Source: Clostridia bacterium
GTDB lineage: Bacteria > Bacillota > Clostridia > UBA1212 > UBA1255
Assembly: GCA_016287565.1 (NCBI GenBank)
Contig: JAEFAM010000001.1
Location: 73,344 to 137,343, forward strand
DNA length: 64,000 nt
Reading direction: 5' to 3'
Shown: positions 852 through 50,580 of the stretch, piece after piece
How positions within the stretch are numbered: position 1 is the stretch's first letter
Layout of the letters: each line of letters starts with the position of its first letter
Notes under the pieces: model-generated
Databases searched by the model: none
Told to the model about the DNA's origin: nothing
What the model saw: only the letters and a program-made list of their open reading frames with translations
Made by a program: the position numbers and the translations under genes

Positions 852-1606
852 AGTATCTCCTCCTTTTTAAGCACGGGGCCGTCTTTGCAGACCCGCTTGT
901 ATCCGTCTTTTGTCTTGACGCTGCAGCCCATGCAGGCGCCGAAACCGCAGCCCATCCGCTCTTCGAAACTGAACTCGCCGGAACAGGCCGCGGCGGAATA
1001 TACAGCTTTGAGCATAGGCAGGGGGCCGCAGGTATAAAAATACGTATATTCGCCGGGGAGATGGTCCGTAACGAAGCCTTTGAACACGCGACCCCGGGCG
1101 TCCGTGTAGGATCCGTCAACGGTGGCCACGATCACGTCGTCTCCGCACAGTTCCCTGAATTCGACCTCGCAAAAAACGTCGGCGGCTCTGTTGAACCCCA
1201 GCAGGGCAAAGGGCTTCGCGCCCCGGTCAACGAGTTTTTTGCACAGCCAGTACAGCGGCGGAACTCCAGCTCCTCCTCCGATGAGGAGCGGCCTCGGGCC
1301 TGCGGCGGAAAGGTCGTACCCGTTGCCCAGACCGGTGAGCACGTTCAGCGTGTCGCCGGGGGAGAGGCGCGACATGGCATCGGTGCCTTTTCCCACTATT
1401 TTATATATAAGGCGGAGAGAATCCTCCTCGCAGTCGAAAACGGATATTGGGCGGCGGAGGAAAAAGCCGTCGAGCTTAACGTTAACGAATTGACCGGGGG
1501 CGGTCACGGCGGAAGTATCGCCGGAAAGAGACAGCAGGCAGACGTTGTCCGCGATGGTCTTCTGATCCCTGACAACGAAATCGACTTCCTTAACCAAACC
1601 CGTCAC
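839..1606 (-). CDS. pyrK: Dihydroorotate dehydrogenase electron-transfer subunit (FAD/2Fe-2S)
   Basis: A 255-aa protein with the C-terminal CGxGxCxxC 2Fe-2S motif (MGCGFGACMGCSV). It lies immediately upstream of pyrD, and the two overlap. Confidence 0.85.
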   Translation of the reverse strand: MTGLVKEVDFVVRDQKTIADNVCLLSLSGDTSAVTAPGQFVNVKLDGFFLRRPISVFDCEEDSLRLIYKIVGKGTDAMSRLSPGDTLNVLTGLGNGYDLSAAGPRPLLIGGGAGVPPLYWLCKKLVDRGAKPFALLGFNRAADVFCEVEFRELCGDDVIVATVDGSYTDARGRVFKGFVTDHLPGEYTYFYTCGPLPMLKAVYSAAACSGEFSFEERMGCGFGACMGCSVKTKDGYKRVCKDGPVLKKEEILWTN

Positions 1607-1838
1607 CTGCCTTTACAAAAAGCGTCCCGTAAGAGCGGCAAAACGCCCTGCGCAACGCACGTCAAGTATACCACGAAACTGCCTCCGCGGTCAATCTCGG
1701 CCGGGGGAGGCGAGGGGGCTTTCGACGGGCGTAAAAAATACGGAAAATTTTCCGAATTAACAATTTGTTAATAAATTCATCACAAAAAATACCCGAAATT
1801 CACAAAAATTTAATTTGAAATTTTTGCCAAAATATGCA

Positions 1839-1867
1839 TTGACTTATTGTTTTATTTTTGATACAAT
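1839..1867 (+). promoter_or_regulatory. Sigma-A-type promoter for rpoB–rpoC (TTGACT – 17 nt – TACAAT), preceded by an A-tract-rich UP-like region (1730-1838)
   Basis: Near-consensus -35 and -10 hexamers with a 17-nt spacer. Phased A/T tracts lie upstream, and a leader of about 180 nt separates the promoter from the rpoB ATG. Confidence 0.5.
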
Positions 1868-2046
1868 ATCAAACTGCGTTGTAATCTCACGCTGCGCGAC
1901 CCCCTTCTCCGGGCAGGGAAAAAGCCCGAAAAAAGAGGGTCAAATGAAGAAAAAAACCGAACCGGTGAACGTATTGTAGCACAGGCAGCGGATTCACGCA
2001 AGGGGAGAATTCCGGCGCAATAATTTAATAGAGGTGATTATCTGCT

Positions 2047-5000
2047 ATGGTGCATACCGTTAAATATGGTAAAACCGAAAGACAGAGCTACTCCAGGATC
2101 CAGGAAATCTTAGAGATGCCTAACCTTATAGCCATCCAGAAAGATTCCTACAAGCATTTTCTGGAAGTCGGACTTAAAGAAGTATTTAAAGACTTCTCCC
2201 CCATTACAGACTTTACCGGCGATCTCGTTCTCGAGTTTATCGACTATCATCTGGACGAAAAGCCGAAATATACAATAGAAGAGAATAAGGAGCGGGATTC
2301 GACGTATTCCGCGCCCCTTAACGTGCGCGTGCGCGTCATTAATAAAGAGACGGGCGTCATAAAGGAAGACACGCTGTTCTTCGGTGACTTCCCGCTCATG
2401 ACCGAAAGCGGCACGTTCATCATGAACGGCGCAGAGCGCGTCATCGTCAGCCAGCTGGTCCGTTCTCCCGGCGCTTACTATGAGAAAGCGTTCGACAAGG
2501 CGAAGGGCAAGACTACCACCGCCACCACGCTCATCCCCAACCGCGGCGCATGGCTGGAATACGAGATCGACTACAACGAGTGCATCCACGTGCGCGTGGA
2601 CCGCAACCGCAAGGTGCCTGCCACCATGCTGTTCCGGGCTTTCGGCTACGGCACCGACGACGACATCCTCAATCTGTTCTCCGTCAACGTCTCCGAACTG
2701 GCGCCCAGGTACGCCGAGAACTTTGAAGACCACCTGATCATCGACGAACGCCTGATCAACACTATGCAGAAGGATACGCTGAACGCCGTTGACGACGCTC
2801 TCCTGGAGATCTACAAGAAGATCCGTCCCGGCGAGCCCGCCATCGTTGACAGCGCCAAATCCCTGTTGTACGGCATGTTTTTCGACGGAAAGCGCTACGA
2901 CCTTTCCAAAGTCGGCCGCTATAAGTTCAACAAGAAACTGTCCCTGTACGCCAGGATCGTTGACCGCGAACTTTGCGCGGACGTCATCGACCCCGAGACC
3001 GGCGAACTTATTGCCGCCGCAGGCGAGACCGTTTCCAGAGAGCTGGCCGAGAAGATCCAGGACGCGGGCGTGGAGTTCGTGTACATCAATACGCCCTACA
3101 AACCCTGCAAGGTCATCGGCAACAAGACCGTTAAGCTCGACGGCTTCGTTTCTTTCGATCCCGCGGAAGTTGGCATCAAAGAGAGAGTATATCTCCCCGT
3201 GCTGAAAGAGATCCTTGACGAATTCGGCGAGGACGAAGAGGCCCTTAAGAAAGAGATCGCCGCCAGAGCCGCGGACCTTGTTCCGAGGCACCTGACCATC
3301 GACGATATCGTGGCCTCCTTCAGCTACCTGCTTAACCTCGACTGCGAAGTCGGAAACGTGGACGACATCGACCATCTGGGCAACCGCCGCATCCGCTGCG
3401 TGGGAGAACTTCTCCAGAACCAGTTCCGCGTGGGACTTTCCAGAATGGAAAAGACCGTGAGAGAAAAGATGAACACTCTCGACAGAGACATCGTGACTCC
3501 CCAGTCCATCGTCAATATCCGCGCGGTCTCCGCGGCCATCCGCGAGTTCTTCGGATCCTCTCAGCTGTCTCAGTTCATGGATCAGACCAACCCCCTGGCC
3601 GAACTGGCCAACAAGCGCCGCCTGTCCGCTCTGGGCCCCGGCGGCCTGAACCGCGACAGAGCCACCTTCGAAGTCCGCGACGTCCACTATTCTCACTACG
3701 GCAGAATGTGCCCCATCGAGACTCCCGAAGGTCCCAACATCGGACTTATCGGATCTCTGGCCACCTACGCCAGGATCAACGAGTACGGCTTCATCGAGGC
3801 GCCCTACAGAAAGTACAATAAAGAGACCCAGTGCGTCACCGATCAGATCGATTATCTGATGGCGGATATGGAAGACCAGTACATCGTCGCCCAGGCCAAC
3901 GAGCCTCTCGACGAGCAGGGCCACTTTATGAACAAGAAAGTTGTCTGCCGCTTCAGGGACCAGTTCATCGAAGTTCCTCCGGAGCAGGTCGACTACATGG
4001 ACGTTTCCCCGAAGCAGGTGGTATCCGTTGCCGCGGCAATGATCCCGTTCCTCGAGAACGACGACGCTTCCCGCGCCCTGATGGGTTCCAACATGCAGCG
4101 CCAGGCCGTTCCGCTTATGAAAACGCAGGCGCCCATCGTTGCCACCGGTATCGAGTATAAAGCCGCTCACGATTCCGGAGCCGTCGTGCTGGCGAAAGCC
4201 GCCGGACGGGTCAAGAACGTCGACGGCAGGCAGATCGTCATCCAGCGCGAAGACGGCACCATCGATACGTACAATCTCCTCAAGTTCATGCGTTCGAACC
4301 AGGCGACCTGCATCAACCAGCGCGCCGTCGTCACTTTCGACGAATGGGTGGAGGAAGGCGACGTCATCGCCGACGGTCCTTCTACGGATCACGGCGAGAT
4401 CGCACTGGGCCGCAACACGCTGATCGGCTTCATGACCTGGGAAGGCTACAACTACGAGGACGCCGTTCTCATCAGCGAGAAGCTGGTCAAGGAAGACGCC
4501 TACACTTCGATCCACATCGAGGAATACGAGTGCGAAGCCCGCGACACCAAGCTGGGACCTGAAGAGATCACTCCCGAAGTGCCTCACATCGGCGACGACG
4601 CCAGAAAGATGCTGGACGCTTCCGGCGTCATCATCATCGGCTCCGAAGTCAGGGCAGGCGACATCCTGGTCGGTAAAGTCACTCCCAAGGGCGAGACCGA
4701 ACTCACGCCTGAAGAGAGGCTGCTCCGCGCCATATTCGGCGAGAAGGCCAGAGACGTGCGCGACACTTCGTTGAGAGTGCCTCACGGATCATACGGTATC
4801 GTCGTTGACGTAAAAGAATTCACCCGCGAGACCGACAGCGAACTGTCCCCCGGCGTGAACAAGATGATAAGAGTCTATATTGCCCAGAAGCGCAAGATCA
4901 CCGTCGGTGATAAAATGGCGGGACGTCACGGAAACAAAGGCGTCGTGTCCAGAGTGCTTCCCGAAGAGGACATGCCTTTCCTGCCCGACGGAACTCCGCT

Positions 5001-9837: not shown

Positions 9838-10476
9838 ATGAAAAATTTTCTGAAGCATTTGCCGATAGTGCTGCTGGCGGTCTTCGAGATCGTGGCGGGC
9901 ATCATGCTGTTCATCGACGCGGACGGCTTTACCAAATTGATCATTTCCGTATTCGGCGGCGTGCTGATCGCCGTCGGCATCGTGAACCTGTTCCGGTACG
10001 TTAAAGGCCGGAAGAGCGGTGAATCCAACGCCCTGAGCCTTACTCTGGCTGTGATCGTCACCCTGGTGGGCATCGTGGCGCTGTTCTTCCCGGGACCCAT
10101 CTACACCGGGATCGCGGGCGCTTTCGGGGCTCTGATCTACGCCATCATGCTGATCATCTCCGGCGTGTTCAAGATCGGCCTGTTCGTGGACTACAGGCAC
10201 AACCAGATCCCCGTAAACTTTATGCATATGATCAGCGGCATCGTTGCCGTGGTACTGGGCGTGGTGATCATTTTGAGGCCTCTGGGCAATGACGCCAGGG
10301 CCACCTGGATCCTTACCGGCATCTTTCTGATCGTGATGTTCGTCCTCGACGTTGCCAGCCTGGTGATCAACGTGGTCAACCGCGGCAAGAAAAAAACCGC
10401 TGAGCGCGGCGATTCGAATTCCGGTGACAACGGCGCCGGTACTGCCGGAGCGGCCGAGGTCGTGGCGGAAGGCTGA
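9838..10476 (+). CDS. Membrane protein, HdeD/DUF308-like (repeated paired transmembrane helices)
   Basis: A 212-aa protein with six or more hydrophobic helices in a short-loop architecture. The assignment rests on composition and topology only. Confidence 0.4.
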   Translation: MKNFLKHLPIVLLAVFEIVAGIMLFIDADGFTKLIISVFGGVLIAVGIVNLFRYVKGRKSGESNALSLTLAVIVTLVGIVALFFPGPIYTGIAGAFGALIYAIMLIISGVFKIGLFVDYRHNQIPVNFMHMISGIVAVVLGVVIILRPLGNDARATWILTGIFLIVMFVLDVASLVINVVNRGKKKTAERGDSNSGDNGAGTAGAAEVVAEG

Positions 10477-10478
10477 AG

Positions 10479-10973
10479 TCAAGATTTTTTGAATATTTTC
10501 CTTTTTATTTTGCCCCCCAGCCGCCTGATCGCTGCGAAGGCCGCTCTTACGGGGTAAATGGCGCACCAGACGCGGGAGTACACCCGGTATCCCCGGTCCG
10601 TCACCGGCGTGAGTCTGCCCTCGCCGGCATTGTCCGCGCTGCTCTTTTTAGAAGAGGCTTTTTTGCCCCGGACGAAACCCGTGAGGACGCCGAAAATATT
10701 GTCCGACGGGACCGTTTCCAGGGCGTAGGTATTGTCGCCGCGGATCAGATAATCGTCGCCGGACCGCTTTATGACCCGGTGGAGAACGGTGGATCCGCCC
10801 CGCCGGTACAGCACTACGTCGTACTTTTCGGGGGGTTTCGCGGGTGGCTCGATGACTACCAGATCCCGGTCCTGGCGAAGCAGGGGGCGCATGCTGGAGC
10901 CGTGGGTCTTGTAGACCAGCTTTCCGTCACGCGTCAATCTTTCTTCAAAAACGGATGGTTCCCGGTCGTTCAC
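10479..10973 (-). CDS. S26-family signal-peptidase-like protein, ER/SipW type (Ser/His), with no N-terminal membrane anchor
   Basis: It has a GSSMRPLL box (the catalytic Ser). Its VLHRVIKRSGDD box carries His where P-type signal peptidases have Lys, and a GDNxxxSxD box follows. The N-terminus is not hydrophobic. A probable GTG start overlaps the PqqD stop as GTGA, whereas the ORF track starts the gene at 11012. Confidence 0.5.
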   Translation of the reverse strand: MNDREPSVFEERLTRDGKLVYKTHGSSMRPLLRQDRDLVVIEPPAKPPEKYDVVLYRRGGSTVLHRVIKRSGDDYLIRGDNTYALETVPSDNIFGVLTGFVRGKKASSKKSSADNAGEGRLTPVTDRGYRVYSRVWCAIYPVRAAFAAIRRLGGKIKRKIFKKS

Positions 10974-11230
10974 TCTTCCAGAGCTCCCACGCTGCGCAGC
11001 GTCGCAAGGCATTTTTTTACGTCCGCGGCAATGACTTCCCGGGGCGCGTCGTATTGTTCGCAGGTCGCGTCGATCAGTTCTTCTTCGCTTATTTCGTTTT
11101 TCAGTTGCCCGATCAGGAAGGCGGTGGTCTTGTTGCCGCGGATCATTCCGTTGAACGCGCCGTTGCCTACGGGCACCAGAAACACGGTGTCGTCGATGGT
11201 CTGAGTCAGAAAGTTGCTTTTCAGCTTCAT
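10970..11230 (-). CDS. PqqD-family protein (RiPP recognition element-like)
   Basis: An 86-aa protein with a PqqD-like sequence (TVFLVPVGNGAFNGMIRGNKTTAFLIGQL...LIDATCEQYDAPREVIAADVKKCLATLRSVGALEE). An AAAGG ribosome-binding site precedes the start. Confidence 0.8.
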   Translation of the reverse strand: MKLKSNFLTQTIDDTVFLVPVGNGAFNGMIRGNKTTAFLIGQLKNEISEEELIDATCEQYDAPREVIAADVKKCLATLRSVGALEE

Positions 11231-11232
11231 TT

Positions 11233-11349
11233 TTACCTTTTTACCTCGCTGGTGTTTTTATCGTTTGCGTCGATCACGTCGATCGCGTCGTTTTTTCCGG
11301 TTGCGCCGGTCCCAACGCCTGCGCCGGTCGTGTCGTTTGCTTCTGTCAA
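11233..11349 (-). CDS. Candidate 38-aa acidic peptide (L/M)TEANDTTGAGVGTGATGKNDAIDVIDANDKNTSEVKR, a putative substrate or precursor
   Basis: The reading frame lies between the kinase stop and the PqqD start. A TTG start overlaps the kinase stop as TTGA, and the peptide's stop sits 2 nt before the PqqD ATG. The longer 66-aa ORF in the track overlaps the kinase 3' end and is less likely. Confidence 0.25.
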   Translation of the reverse strand: MTEANDTTGAGVGTGATGKNDAIDVIDANDKNTSEVKR

Positions 11350-12194
11350 GTCGTCAGGGCGGCCTGCGTCTCCTCGTCTTTGCGGCTCATGCCTTCGAAA
11401 GAGACCCGCGCGGCGTCCGGCTCCATGTTGCATTTCAGGTCGTAGAAACGGAGAGAGCGGGTCATCGTTTTTACCATATCCAGGATCAGGCCCATGGAGG
11501 CGGTGTCGTCGGAGAGGTAGACCTGCTTCATTAGTTTCATGAACGCGTCGGGCGCGGAAACGGGGGACACCGAATTGACCTCGCTCCTGCTCAAAAACGC
11601 GACGGCGTCAAGGGGCGCGGACACGTTGGCGCCCAGGCGGTGCTTGCCGTTCCATGGCGTGCCGCAGACCGTGATCCGGACCGGACCGTCGTTGCCGTCA
11701 ACGTTGTTGCCGGTGCCGCGATCGCCTTCGCGCTTGCCGTCGCCGTTGCCCGGAGCGTCCTTGGGAAGCTCCTTTTCGAACCTCAGCAGCGGCTTGTCGT
11801 CGTCGATCATCGTCACCCTGTTGCCGTAAACCTCGCGCCACAGCCTGGCGTGTGTGCTTTTTCCCGTGCCCGAAGGCGCCGTGAAAATATATCCGCGGCC
11901 GTCCATCGCCAGCGACGAGCCGTGCATCAGCAGCACGCCGTGTTTCAGCAGTTTTTCTGCCAGAATGGCGTGGATGGCGCAATTTTCCACAAACGCACCG
12001 GGATAAGCGGCCCGGACAATTCCTTCCGCTTCGTCGGTGGCGCGGATCCTCTCGAGAGCGCGGACCATGTCCTCCTCCGACGGGTCAACCACGAACGCGG
12101 GTTCAAGGTCGGTTTGATAGCCGTCAAAAAACCGCTGGTTCGACCTATATCTGCTTACGATCTCCGCCGGTACTCCGGCCAGCAAAATCCTCAT
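11346..12194 (-). CDS. HPr kinase/phosphorylase-related kinase (HprK C-terminal-domain-like, P-loop)
   Basis: It carries HGSSLAMDGRGYIFTAPSGTGKSTHARLW, an HprK_C-like Walker A region. A GGAGGTG ribosome-binding site lies 5 nt upstream of the ATG at 12194. The ORF track begins the gene at a GTG at 12200. Confidence 0.7.
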   Translation of the reverse strand: MRILLAGVPAEIVSRYRSNQRFFDGYQTDLEPAFVVDPSEEDMVRALERIRATDEAEGIVRAAYPGAFVENCAIHAILAEKLLKHGVLLMHGSSLAMDGRGYIFTAPSGTGKSTHARLWREVYGNRVTMIDDDKPLLRFEKELPKDAPGNGDGKREGDRGTGNNVDGNDGPVRITVCGTPWNGKHRLGANVSAPLDAVAFLSRSEVNSVSPVSAPDAFMKLMKQVYLSDDTASMGLILDMVKTMTRSLRFYDLKCNMEPDAARVSFEGMSRKDEETQAALTT

Positions 12195-12230
12195 CCGCAC
12201 CTCCGCGAGGTCAATCGCCTTCGCCTGCTA

Positions 12231-12259
12231 ATTATATCCTCCGGGGCCGGCGAACGCAA
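12231..12259 (-). promoter_or_regulatory. Putative promoter of the kinase–peptide–PqqD–peptidase operon (TTGCGT – 17 nt – TATAAT). The -35 hexamer lies inside a REP copy.
   Basis: On the minus strand a TATAAT -10 lies about 37 nt upstream of the kinase ATG, and the -35-like hexamer is supplied by the REP core. Confidence 0.3.
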
Positions 12260-12348
12260 GTCTGTCCCCCGTTCGCGCGTTCGGCGCCGGACGCTTGAAA
12301 CGCGAACCTGTCCCCCGTTCGGCGTGTCCCCCGTTCGGCGTGGGGGGA
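12251..12348. repeat. REP-like repeats (inverse orientation, AACGCAAGTCTGTCCCCCGTTCG, 3 copies). Positions 12251-12324 form the first copy of a roughly 72-bp direct repeat.
   Basis: The sequence was read directly. The block is near-identical to 12861-12932. Confidence 0.8.
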
Positions 12349-12658: not shown

Positions 12659-12825
12659 TAAGGAAGCGAGAACTACCTCAACGCCCAAAACGAGCGAGAG
12701 ATATGCGCAAATTGCTTTTTCGAGATAAATTTTCTGCGTTTTAAAGAAAAGCGCCACCCCAAGGCTGTAAGAGGTACCGCCTAAGTCCAAAAAGCGCGGA
12801 ACGAGAACAAAGGGCAGGGACGAAA

Positions 12826-12935
12826 AACGAGAACCTGTCCCCCGTTCGGCGTGGAGAGAGAAACGCAAGTCTGTCCCCCGTTCGCGCGTTCGGTGCCGGA
12901 CGCTTGAAACGAGAACCTGTCCCCCGTTCGGCCGC
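12826..12935. repeat. REP-like repeats (inverse orientation, 3 copies). Positions 12861-12932 form the second copy of the roughly 72-bp direct repeat.
   Basis: The sequence was read directly. Confidence 0.8.
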
Positions 12936-30665: not shown

Positions 30666-30725
30666 GCGAACGCAAGTCTGTCCCCCGTTCGGCGAGTTGC
30701 GAACGCAAGTCTGTCCCCCGTTCGC
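30666..30725. repeat. REP-like repeats (2 copies, GCGAACGCAAGTCTGTCCCCCGTTCG)
   Basis: The sequence was read directly. Confidence 0.8.
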
Positions 30726-46357: not shown

Positions 46358-46510
46358 GTGCGAACGGGGGACAGACTTGGGTTTCGGGCGGTCGAATGGT
46401 CCGTCGAACGGGGGACAGACTTGGGTTTCGGGCGGTCGAATGGTCCGTCGAACGGGGGACAGACTTTCGTTCGCCCCCCGGTGGAAAGGGGACAGACTTG
46501 CGATCACCGT
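46358..46510. repeat. REP-like repeat cluster (4 copies, GAACGGGGGACAGACTTGGGTTTCG and variants)
   Basis: The sequence was read directly. Confidence 0.8.
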
Positions 46511-50404: not shown

Positions 50405-50433
50405 GAAGCGCCAGCAGGCGCAGACCGGCGCGA

Positions 50434-50580
50434 ACGCGGGACAGACTTGGTTTCGCGCCGACTGTGGACGGGGGACAGACTTTAGGTCCCCCGCCTTTTT
50501 TTGCCGGCGAACGAGGACAGCGAACGGGGGACAGACTTGTGTTTTTGCGGGATGCGAACGCGTGACAGACTTGTATCTCG
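50434..50580. repeat. REP-like repeat cluster (4 copies)
   Basis: The sequence was read directly. Confidence 0.8.

Follow-up and report, generated by a model that had tools for sequence, protein, structure and literature searches.

The locus considered here occupies positions 10479-12259 on the minus strand of a 64,000-nt stretch of a Clostridia bacterium genome (contig JAEFAM010000001.1), hereafter termed the window, and all window coordinates are positions in that whole stretch. It encodes an HprK-like kinase, a PqqD-family protein and a soluble S26B-like peptidase, and it is probably a "bare" copy, without a precursor, of a module of these three proteins that is widespread and, it appears, uncharacterised. 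The module, in turn, is likely to be a peptide maturation system guided by a recognition element (RRE) of the kind found in pathways whose products are ribosomally synthesized, post-translationally modified peptides (RiPPs), related to the tailoring and processing genes of lasso peptide pathways and equipped with an unusual, predicted S26B-like leader peptidase. A first-pass annotation of this DNA had taken a 38-aa acidic peptide, encoded between the kinase and PqqD genes, as the precursor and substrate of such a system. A RiPP-type interpretation stands for the three enzymes and does not extend to this proposed precursor, because its open reading frame (ORF) is an orphan, lacks the leader motif of the genuine precursor family and is missing from the closest relative of the locus. 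On the whole, the trio family is a promising candidate for a RiPP class of its own, with the window copy lacking a substrate gene.

Conservation of the trio and its accessory genes

The relatives were scanned with one genome per species; 83 non-redundant loci were counted and the ORFs of 81 loci were clustered. Relatives of the kinase turned up in the genomes of at least 595 species, mostly rumen and gut Clostridia. The isolates Ruminococcus flavefaciens Y1, Kandleria vitulina DSM 20405 and Ruminococcaceae bacterium FB2012 are among these, as are some metagenome-assembled genomes of Bacteroidales, Synergistaceae and Erysipelotrichaceae. A PqqD gene lies beside the kinase in 71 of the 83 loci and an S26-like gene in 66, and the kinase-PqqD-S26 neighbourhood noted in the initial annotation is in this sense widely conserved. 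The same surroundings hold a nucleotidyltransferase of the NTP_transf_5 family (36/83), an ATP-binding cassette (ABC) exporter (35/83) and radical S-adenosylmethionine (rSAM)/SPASM peptide maturases of TIGR04463/PapB-like type (16/83). The common gene order is kinase-PqqD-peptidase, with the kinase and PqqD genes usually abutting without a gap. Beyond these, none of the protein families from the clustered ORFs is shared by more than about 5 of the 81 loci, and the large ORFs that were spot-checked are unrelated, which together imply that the family includes neither a lasso cyclase nor a B2 protease. Precomputed Pfam matches in the window neighbourhood also include no Asn-synthetase-like lasso cyclase and no transglutaminase-like B2 protein. 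The early remark that cyclase, B2 and rSAM enzymes are all missing is true of the window, but as regards rSAM it does not extend to the family as a whole, given the rSAM/SPASM genes at some of its loci.

The members of the trio also occur as fused proteins. PqqD and S26-like domains are joined in at least six independent clusters (P0158, P0159, P0168, P0176, P0244 and P0260), while the S26-like peptidase is fused to NTP_transf_5 in P0146, P0193 and P0256, and to an ABC exporter in P0239. A 993-aa ORF at L016:5999-8980, the N-terminus of which matches the S26-like family (E=3e-61) and the remainder of which has no Pfam domain, may represent another fusion partner or a mis-joined frame.

The closest relative of the locus, L086, is fully syntenic with it and shows the order SIS_2, kinase, a 27-nt gap, PqqD, S26 and NTP_transf_5, with DUF308 and rpoC further along. 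Bare trios make up 8 of the 42 well-flanked loci, among them that of Sarcina sp. DSM 11001; the 64-kb window likewise contains no precursor-family gene, NTP_transf_5 gene or rSAM maturase.

The kinase

The kinase has 3256 homologs at E≤1e-3, all of them unnamed. Its conserved motifs are MHGS (H93), SGTGKST (residues 110-116), DDDKP (D134/D135) and GTPWNGKH, and in an alignment of 25 kinase homologs (A1) the elements MHGS, SGTGKST, DDKP and G-x-PW-x-GKH are invariant. Comparison of this alignment by hhalign with BsfK, for which we translated the gene sequence printed in PMC10368454, gave a probability of 96.6% and E=7e-10 over 137 columns, and the critical residues of BsfK, namely the His, the P-loop Lys/Ser and the Asp-Asp pair, correspond to H93, K114/S115 and D134/D135 of the window protein. 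BsfK is a lasso-precursor kinase that phosphorylates Ser3 of the core peptide, and the PqqD-like BsfB1 both strongly stimulates BsfK and assists the B2 leader peptidase in leader removal (PMC10368454). At the sequence level the window kinase is homologous to lasso-precursor kinases of the PadeK/PsmK/BsfK type, with its catalytic motifs intact and its activity predicted.

As a search of PDB sequences with the kinase profile returned nothing significant, the fold was searched instead. The AlphaFold (AF2) model, with a mean predicted local distance difference test score (pLDDT) of 89.7, was matched by Foldseek against PDB to ATP-dependent phosphoenolpyruvate carboxykinases (PEPCK) and to HPr kinase/phosphorylase (HprK/P) with E-values of 3e-7 to 1e-4. 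The HprK/PEPCK fold, together with the homology to BsfK, upholds the HprK-related character ascribed to this protein at the outset, but membership in the curated HprK-related families does not follow, since kinase A (TIGR04352) and kinase B (TIGR04355) score 17.3 and 18.7 bits against a cut-off of 200, with both matches confined to the P-loop region. The top NCBIfam match, ScmC (TIGR04249), is also below its cut-off (21.8 versus 125 bits), and a Pfam scan of the window kinase returned no family. A precomputed match to PF27840 "ScmC" is marked as weak for the window kinase and is unmarked for many of its homologs; our own Pfam scan did not reproduce it. Against HPr kinase proper, a relative scores 16.2 versus 33.3 bits (Hpr_kinase_C) and 17.8 versus 240 bits (TIGR00679), and the likeness to HPr kinase/phosphorylase proper, as judged from the predicted model, is at the fold level only.

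A lineage-specific, low-complexity insert rich in Gly, Asn and Asp (residues ~143-173; window 11680-11775) is modelled with pLDDT<50. The Sarcina sp. protein (P0019) has a separate insert at the same site.

The PqqD protein and the S26B-like peptidase

The original PqqD assignment is secure, in that the window protein matches Pfam PF05402 with E=3.9e-10 and 40.3 bits, above the gathering threshold of 23.4. It additionally shows weak matches to the NCBIfam models for lasso PqqD chaperones, and BLASTP against BsfB1 produced no alignment.

The peptidase displays the motifs G-x-S27-M-x-P, L-H65-R and G79-D80-N, which are of the Sec11/SipW type. In two alignments of the family with 25 (A2) and 41 (A4) members, H65 and G79-D80 are invariant, and S27 is invariant in A2 and conserved in at least 90% of A4. 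A profile search of PDB aligned the SM.P, HRV and GDN boxes of the family with those of bacterial signal peptidase I (SPase I) and SEC11A/C, with H65 falling on the position of the catalytic Lys of SPase I, that is, on the catalytic Lys/His position. The AlphaFold model (pLDDT 92.3) has Foldseek matches to SpsB, SipA, LexA and UmuD, and the homologs of the peptidase make up 773 representative clusters at E≤1e-10. The protein has no N-terminal membrane anchor, with just 26 polar residues ahead of Ser27, and its maximal 19-residue hydropathy (1.11) is located in a C-terminal amphipathic helix. Neither the domain search nor the model gave any indication of a DNA-binding domain. The curated models are narrowly or widely missed: the window peptidase scores 22.4 versus 23.3 bits for Peptidase_S24 (PF00717), just short of the cut-off, and 20.4 versus 47 bits for TIGR02227, while a relative scores 22.8 versus 51.85 bits for TIGR02228. 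Taken together, "soluble S26B-like peptidase", which is in essence the first assignment of a soluble Ser/His enzyme, is a fair description at the level of motifs and predicted fold, with catalysis predicted and no curated cut-off reached.

The peptidase, too, carries a lineage-specific insert, rich in Lys and Ser (residues ~105-120; window 10610-10660), which is shared with L086. The lineage-specific spacer of 115 nt that separates the PqqD gene from the kinase gene is similar in composition to the kinase and peptidase inserts, which suggests a local tendency to gain such sequence.

A precursor family encoded beside the trio in relatives

Clustering of the small intergenic ORFs at the relatives' loci uncovered a family of precursors of about 35 aa, 44 of which were used to build a hidden Markov model (HMM). 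Precursors of this family are encoded at 38 of the 83 loci, often in several tandem copies, and combine a conserved leader with the consensus M-x-E-K-Y-E-x-P-E-[MIL]-E-[IV]-[IV]-x-F-x-x-E-D-[VI]-I-T-T-S with a core of about 12 aa that is acidic and variable. The element Y-x-x-P-x-[MIL] is the leader motif recognised by lasso B1 proteins (PMC10368454). At least 221 clusters of the protein collection belong to this family, none of them named, and it is matched by no NCBIfam or Pfam model. Cores with Cys track the presence of an rSAM/SPASM gene (15/18 versus 1/34, p=3e-9), and the rSAM maturases of these relatives resemble TIGR04463, PapB and CefB. About one-fifth of the cores have no Ser or Thr at all and the leader-core junction is near-invariant, so that the junction T-T-S is the only universal hydroxyl target for the kinase, which is itself present throughout. 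The precursors also carry small residues at the putative -3/-1 positions (T-x-S). We also considered a lasso-like ring, formed from Gly1 to an Asp/Glu at positions 7-9 with the kinase as carboxylate activator, and set this aside, as the cores are too acidic for position-specific enrichment to be judged from about 50 sequences.

P0293 (…KYETPEMEIVEFESEDIITTSGDNNELPPMPIQ; L092:8001-8156 / L093:1459-1614) is a true precursor of this family, yet no trio gene (kinase, PqqD or S26) lies within 8 kb of it, which makes action in trans plausible. It adjoins an Acyl_transf_3 gene, a two-component system and an ABC ATPase, with an AgrB homolog nearby. At the canonical cluster L090 the precursor is flanked by proteins of 880 and 135 aa (1417-4059 and 4415-4822), both without a Pfam match. 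Some trio and precursor loci lie among polysaccharide or surface-modification genes (L077:974-4928, L079:3660-4736, L011:7109-8074, L092:8252-9346), including those for a Polysacc_synt flippase, a sugar-transfer ATP-grasp protein, UDP-glucose dehydrogenase, a family 2 glycosyltransferase (GT2) and Acyl_transf_3; this context may point to glycosylation or acylation of the peptides, or may be a coincidental neighbourhood.

The 38-aa open reading frame

The peptide that was initially proposed as the substrate shows no affinity to the above precursor family. The precursor HMM does not match it even at E≤100 and, run over all frames of the 64-kb window, finds no family match, with a best E-value of 1.3. 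A search of 5.8 billion proteins with a padded query recovered a copy from its own species alone. The ORF lacks the leader motif Y-x-x-P-x-[MIL]-E-[IV]-[IV], and it is absent from L086, from L088 and from Sarcina sp. DSM 11001. No Shine-Dalgarno sequence precedes its TTG. The spacer that houses it is poor in T, and 37% of composition-matched shuffles keep a given frame open to the end, with 80% keeping at least one frame open; an open frame is therefore expected there by chance. The GC content at third codon positions (GC3) is 0.64 in the ORF, as against 0.71-0.78 in its three operon neighbours and 0.77-0.81 in four other window genes, and its codon log-odds of 0.06, as against 0.24-0.45 in the neighbours, are weakly coding-like. 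In the single variant contig available (L004), there is one synonymous change in the ORF, among 11 changes over 1,751 aligned bases, 9 of which are coding. The possibility that the ORF is what a deletion left of a precursor or rSAM gene was discarded, as blastx and blastn against the relatives gave off-frame, low-complexity noise only. These results suggest that it is probably a lineage-specific spacer ORF rather than a substrate, and a role as a lineage-specific substrate appears quite unlikely.

Relationship to known systems

By analogy, the system is most like the K/B1/B2(/N/D) part of the phosphorylated lasso pathways (paeninodin, pseudomycoidin and Bsf; genes C, A, K, B1, B2, N and D). 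Both feature an HprK-like kinase with the His, P-loop and Asp-Asp motifs and a discrete PqqD/RRE protein, which in Bsf serves the kinase as well as the leader peptidase (PMC10368454), and the relatives of the window locus share the NTP_transf_5 "N" gene, the ABC "D" gene and precursors with a YxxPxL-type leader motif. The order K-PqqD-peptidase-N/D of the trio family corresponds to the order K-B1-B2-N-D of the psm cluster (PMC6993621). Its PqqD+S26 fusions parallel the fused B proteins of lasso clusters, and its S26+NTP_transf_5 fusions the B2-N fusions reported in those of Firmicutes (PMC8498205). In contrast to these pathways, neither an Asn-synthetase-like cyclase nor a transglutaminase-like B2 protein is present in the window or recurrent in the 81 loci, and a Ser/His peptidase of clan SF stands at the B2 position of the trio. 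The cores of the family are also shorter (median ~12 aa) and rarely end in Ser, and the junction Ser stands 3 residues farther from the leader motif than under the lasso -17 to -12 rule. The window itself differs further by the absence of a precursor, N or D gene: from among the features of a lasso cluster it has B1, the PqqD-like RRE, and lacks B2, C and a precursor with a YxxPxL leader. The precursor gene expected of any RiPP cluster is similarly absent from the window, and is found by co-occurrence in the wider family.

SynChlorMet, which comprises ScmC, the PqqD-like ScmD and two rSAM/SPASM proteins, has in common with the trio the pairing of a kinase with PqqD, the rSAM/SPASM proteins of some relatives and a function that is unassigned in both; the precomputed PF27840 "ScmC" label is also assigned to many of the kinase homologs. 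The two differ in that the kinase falls well below the ScmC equivalog cut-off, in that rSAM genes are optional in the trio family and absent from the window, and in that the trio family has an S26-like peptidase, defined precursors and a distribution mainly in gut and rumen Clostridia.

With the S26B signal peptidases, namely SEC11A/C, archaeal SPase I and Bacillus SipW, the trio peptidase shares the SM.P and GDN boxes, the His that replaces the Lys of S26A/S24 (L-H-R-V) and the signal-peptidase/LexA β-fold. It is distinguished from them by its much smaller size (family ~145-165 aa), by the lack of an anchor, with a predicted cytoplasmic or peripheral location, by its partnership with an RRE, to which it is fused in some relatives, and by scores below the curated signal-peptidase cut-offs. 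The rSAM/SPASM thioether RiPPs (ranthipeptides and sactipeptides with PapB- and TIGR04463-type enzymes) resemble those relatives that carry such maturases together with Cys-containing cores. Unlike in those classes, the rSAM enzyme is an add-on to the constant trio and does not define the family, and the window has none.

Proposed function and alternative explanations

The above analogies suggest a scheme in which the PqqD protein would bind the YxxPx[LIM] leader motif and present the precursor to both the kinase and the peptidase, much as in the phosphorylated lasso pathways with K, B1, B2, N and D. The kinase would phosphorylate a hydroxyl residue, most likely the near-invariant Ser/Thr where leader and core meet, and the S26-like peptidase would remove the leader in place of the lasso B2 cysteine protease. 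Signal peptidases prefer small residues at -3/-1, and the T-x-S junction fits this rule. As no cyclase is present, the products may be short linear peptides, or thioether-bridged ones when an rSAM enzyme is present, and might be phosphorylated or glycosylated. The window trio would then either be idle or act on precursors from other parts of the genome; action in trans is plausible. In its most extended form, which we put forward tentatively, the proposal is that gut and rumen anaerobes possess an undescribed RiPP class with the trio as its invariant core, a class derived from phosphorylated lasso pathways, without the cyclase, in which a soluble Sec11/SipW-type Ser/His peptidase would serve as an RRE-dependent leader peptidase, the kinase would target the junction Ser/Thr, and bare copies would act on precursors located elsewhere.

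Several points weigh against this reading. Curated HMM cut-offs are not reached for the S24/S26 and HprK-related families, no precursor lies within the 64 kb of the window, and the phosphorylation site, cleavage site and product are all deduced by analogy, our searches having found no experimental study of the family. PadeK and PsmK target the C-terminal Ser of their precursor, and such a Ser is not conserved in the cores of this family. The 38-aa ORF is the source of the other points: it is tightly coupled with both of its neighbours, occupies the position held by precursors in L006, L007 and L010, and is called as a gene by three annotation sources; its frame, although weaker than the neighbouring genes, looks more coding-like than the other two. 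In its G/T/N/D-rich composition it is, moreover, similar to the BsfA core and to certain cores at L010 and L022. Were these features decisive, the locus would form a complete RiPP operon of four genes, with the 38-aa acidic peptide as a precursor that is bound by PqqD, phosphorylated by the kinase, and cleaved by the S26-like peptidase. This is rendered very unlikely by the lack of the family leader and the silence of the precursor HMM, by the lack of a homolog outside the same species, by the absence of the ORF from L086 and from most loci, where kinase and PqqD abut, and by its TTG start without a Shine-Dalgarno sequence in a spacer for which 37-80% of the shuffles leave a frame open.

The same bare arrangement could alternatively be a decaying remnant, in which the precursor, rSAM, transporter and nucleotidyltransferase genes were lost and the trio with its deletion spacer is non-functional or in the process of being lost. 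Among the loci with fuller clusters, those nearest by kinase (L006, L007, L010 and L011) do hold one or more precursors and an rSAM gene between the kinase and PqqD genes, the syntenic L086 retains an NTP_transf_5 gene that the window lacks, and both the kinase and the peptidase have acquired lineage-specific low-complexity inserts. Yet the three proteins, which diverge by 32-42% from those of L086, have kept all of their catalytic and structural invariants, their frames are unbroken and coupled in translation, nothing in the spacer resembles a relic of a precursor or rSAM gene, and the recurrence of bare trios in distant taxa and in an isolate, along with many near-identical contigs, argues for retention. 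We disfavour decay, which appears unlikely, because every invariant residue is preserved and bare trios occur in distant taxa. A further alternative dispenses with RiPPs altogether and has the trio act on a protein substrate, for instance in the phosphorylation-gated cleavage of a regulator or of a surface- or polysaccharide-associated protein, with PqqD as the adaptor. Such a role would be in keeping with the inclusion in clan SF of the self-cleaving regulators LexA and UmuD, both of which are among the fold matches, with the location of some loci among polysaccharide-synthesis genes (flippase, GT2, Acyl_transf_3 and UDP-glucose dehydrogenase), and with the many loci that have no precursor within 5 kb. 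We regard it as improbable, to much the same degree as the four-gene operon, since short precursors with an RRE-type leader accompany the trio at so many loci, rSAM/SPASM maturases track the Cys-containing cores, the kinase is homologous to a peptide-precursor kinase, and the peptidase is fused to an exporter and to PqqD in relatives and has no DNA-binding domain. The reading as a bare copy of an RRE-guided peptide maturation module is the one retained below.

Implications

Our literature searches found no description of the kinase-PqqD-S26 combination or of the precursor family, and the RRE-Finder paper makes no mention of these partners. If the above reading is true, thousands of gut and rumen Clostridia, as well as some Bacteroidales, Erysipelotrichaceae and Synergistaceae, hold an unstudied peptide-maturation pathway, in which the leader/RRE/kinase logic of lasso biosynthesis would be reused without a lasso, and in which a signal-peptidase-type enzyme would have been recruited into the cytoplasm as a leader peptidase. 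It would thereby supply a new type of leader peptidase, and perhaps also a new class of RiPPs, the members of which are short, acidic and phosphorylated or thioether-bridged. A 2026 survey of rumen isolates listed 153 uncharacterised "RRE-containing" clusters (PMC13289728); these may include trio loci, and a part of them would then be explained. The trio, together with the leader Y-x-x-P-x-[MIL]-E-[IV]-[IV]…D-[VI]-I-T-T-S, would furnish a signature for genome mining. For the window itself the message is narrower, namely that the enzymes are real and that the proposed precursor probably is not.

Locus organization and control signals

The four consecutive minus-strand frames (Table 1) are present as described in the first-pass annotation, and their start/stop overlaps can be read directly from the sequence. 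The kinase stop TGA (11348-11346) is overlapped by the TTG at 11349 that opens the 38-codon frame, the TAA of the latter (11235-11233) ends 2 nt upstream of the PqqD ATG at 11230, and the TGA of the PqqD gene is overlapped by the peptidase GTG at 10973. The kinase frame is likewise as annotated, but its start is most likely the ATG at 12194 (282 aa) and not, as first given, the GTG at 12200 (284 aa), because GGAGG (12204-12200) lies 5 nt upstream of the former and three annotation sources give the same start. For the peptidase, sequence homology favours the GTG start, since its orthologue in L086 shows an ATGA overlap with the preceding gene, parallel to the GTGA of the window, and since a conserved N-terminal FEExL helix would be lost from a later TTG start. 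The same DNA is present in the NCBI assembly GCA_016648615.1 and in two Joint Genome Institute (JGI) metagenomes.

Table 1. Features of the trio locus in the 64,000-nt window
Feature	Position	Strand	Basis or remark
Promoter-like site	12231..12259	-	-35 TTGCGT (12259-12254), 17-nt spacer, -10 TATAAT (12236-12231)
HprK/PEPCK-fold P-loop kinase homolog, 282 aa from ATG 12194	11346..12194	-	Homologs, fold search, hhalign
38-aa orphan ORF (TTG start) in 115-nt kinase-PqqD spacer	11233..11349	-	Probably not a conserved gene of the system
PqqD-family protein, 86 aa, predicted RiPP recognition element (leader-binding chaperone)	10970..11230	-	Pfam PqqD
Soluble clan-SF (S24/S26) peptidase homolog, 164 aa from GTG 10973	10479..10973	-	Motifs, profile, fold
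Terminator-like hairpin and T-run, ~65 nt past the peptidase stop	10394..10415	-	Consensus scan only; predicted

The promoter suggested for the operon has a perfect -10 element with the spacing given in Table 1, but its -35 element matches at 3 of 6 positions, the consensus scan left the site uncalled, and it overlaps a dispersed repeat element. Searches with Rfam yielded no credible RNA element in the spacer or the upstream region. The terminator-like hairpin sits within the 3' end of a convergent DUF308 gene (9838-10476), the stop of which is only 2 nt away from that of the peptidase.

The dispersed element is typified by the intergenic motif CTGTCCCCCGTTCG, which has 20 copies at ≤1 mismatch in the window, versus 0.06 expected, and often occurs in clusters of 2-3. 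Its positions are 12252-12342, 12825-12935, 23375, 30678-30724, 46361-46462, 50431-50534, 52184, 54508 and 58249, and one of the clusters overlaps the putative promoter of the trio operon. A 71-nt unit at 12253-12323 has a second copy, 97% identical, at 12862-12932, and the motif looks like an element of the repetitive extragenic palindrome/bacterial interspersed mosaic element (REP/BIME) type belonging to this genome.

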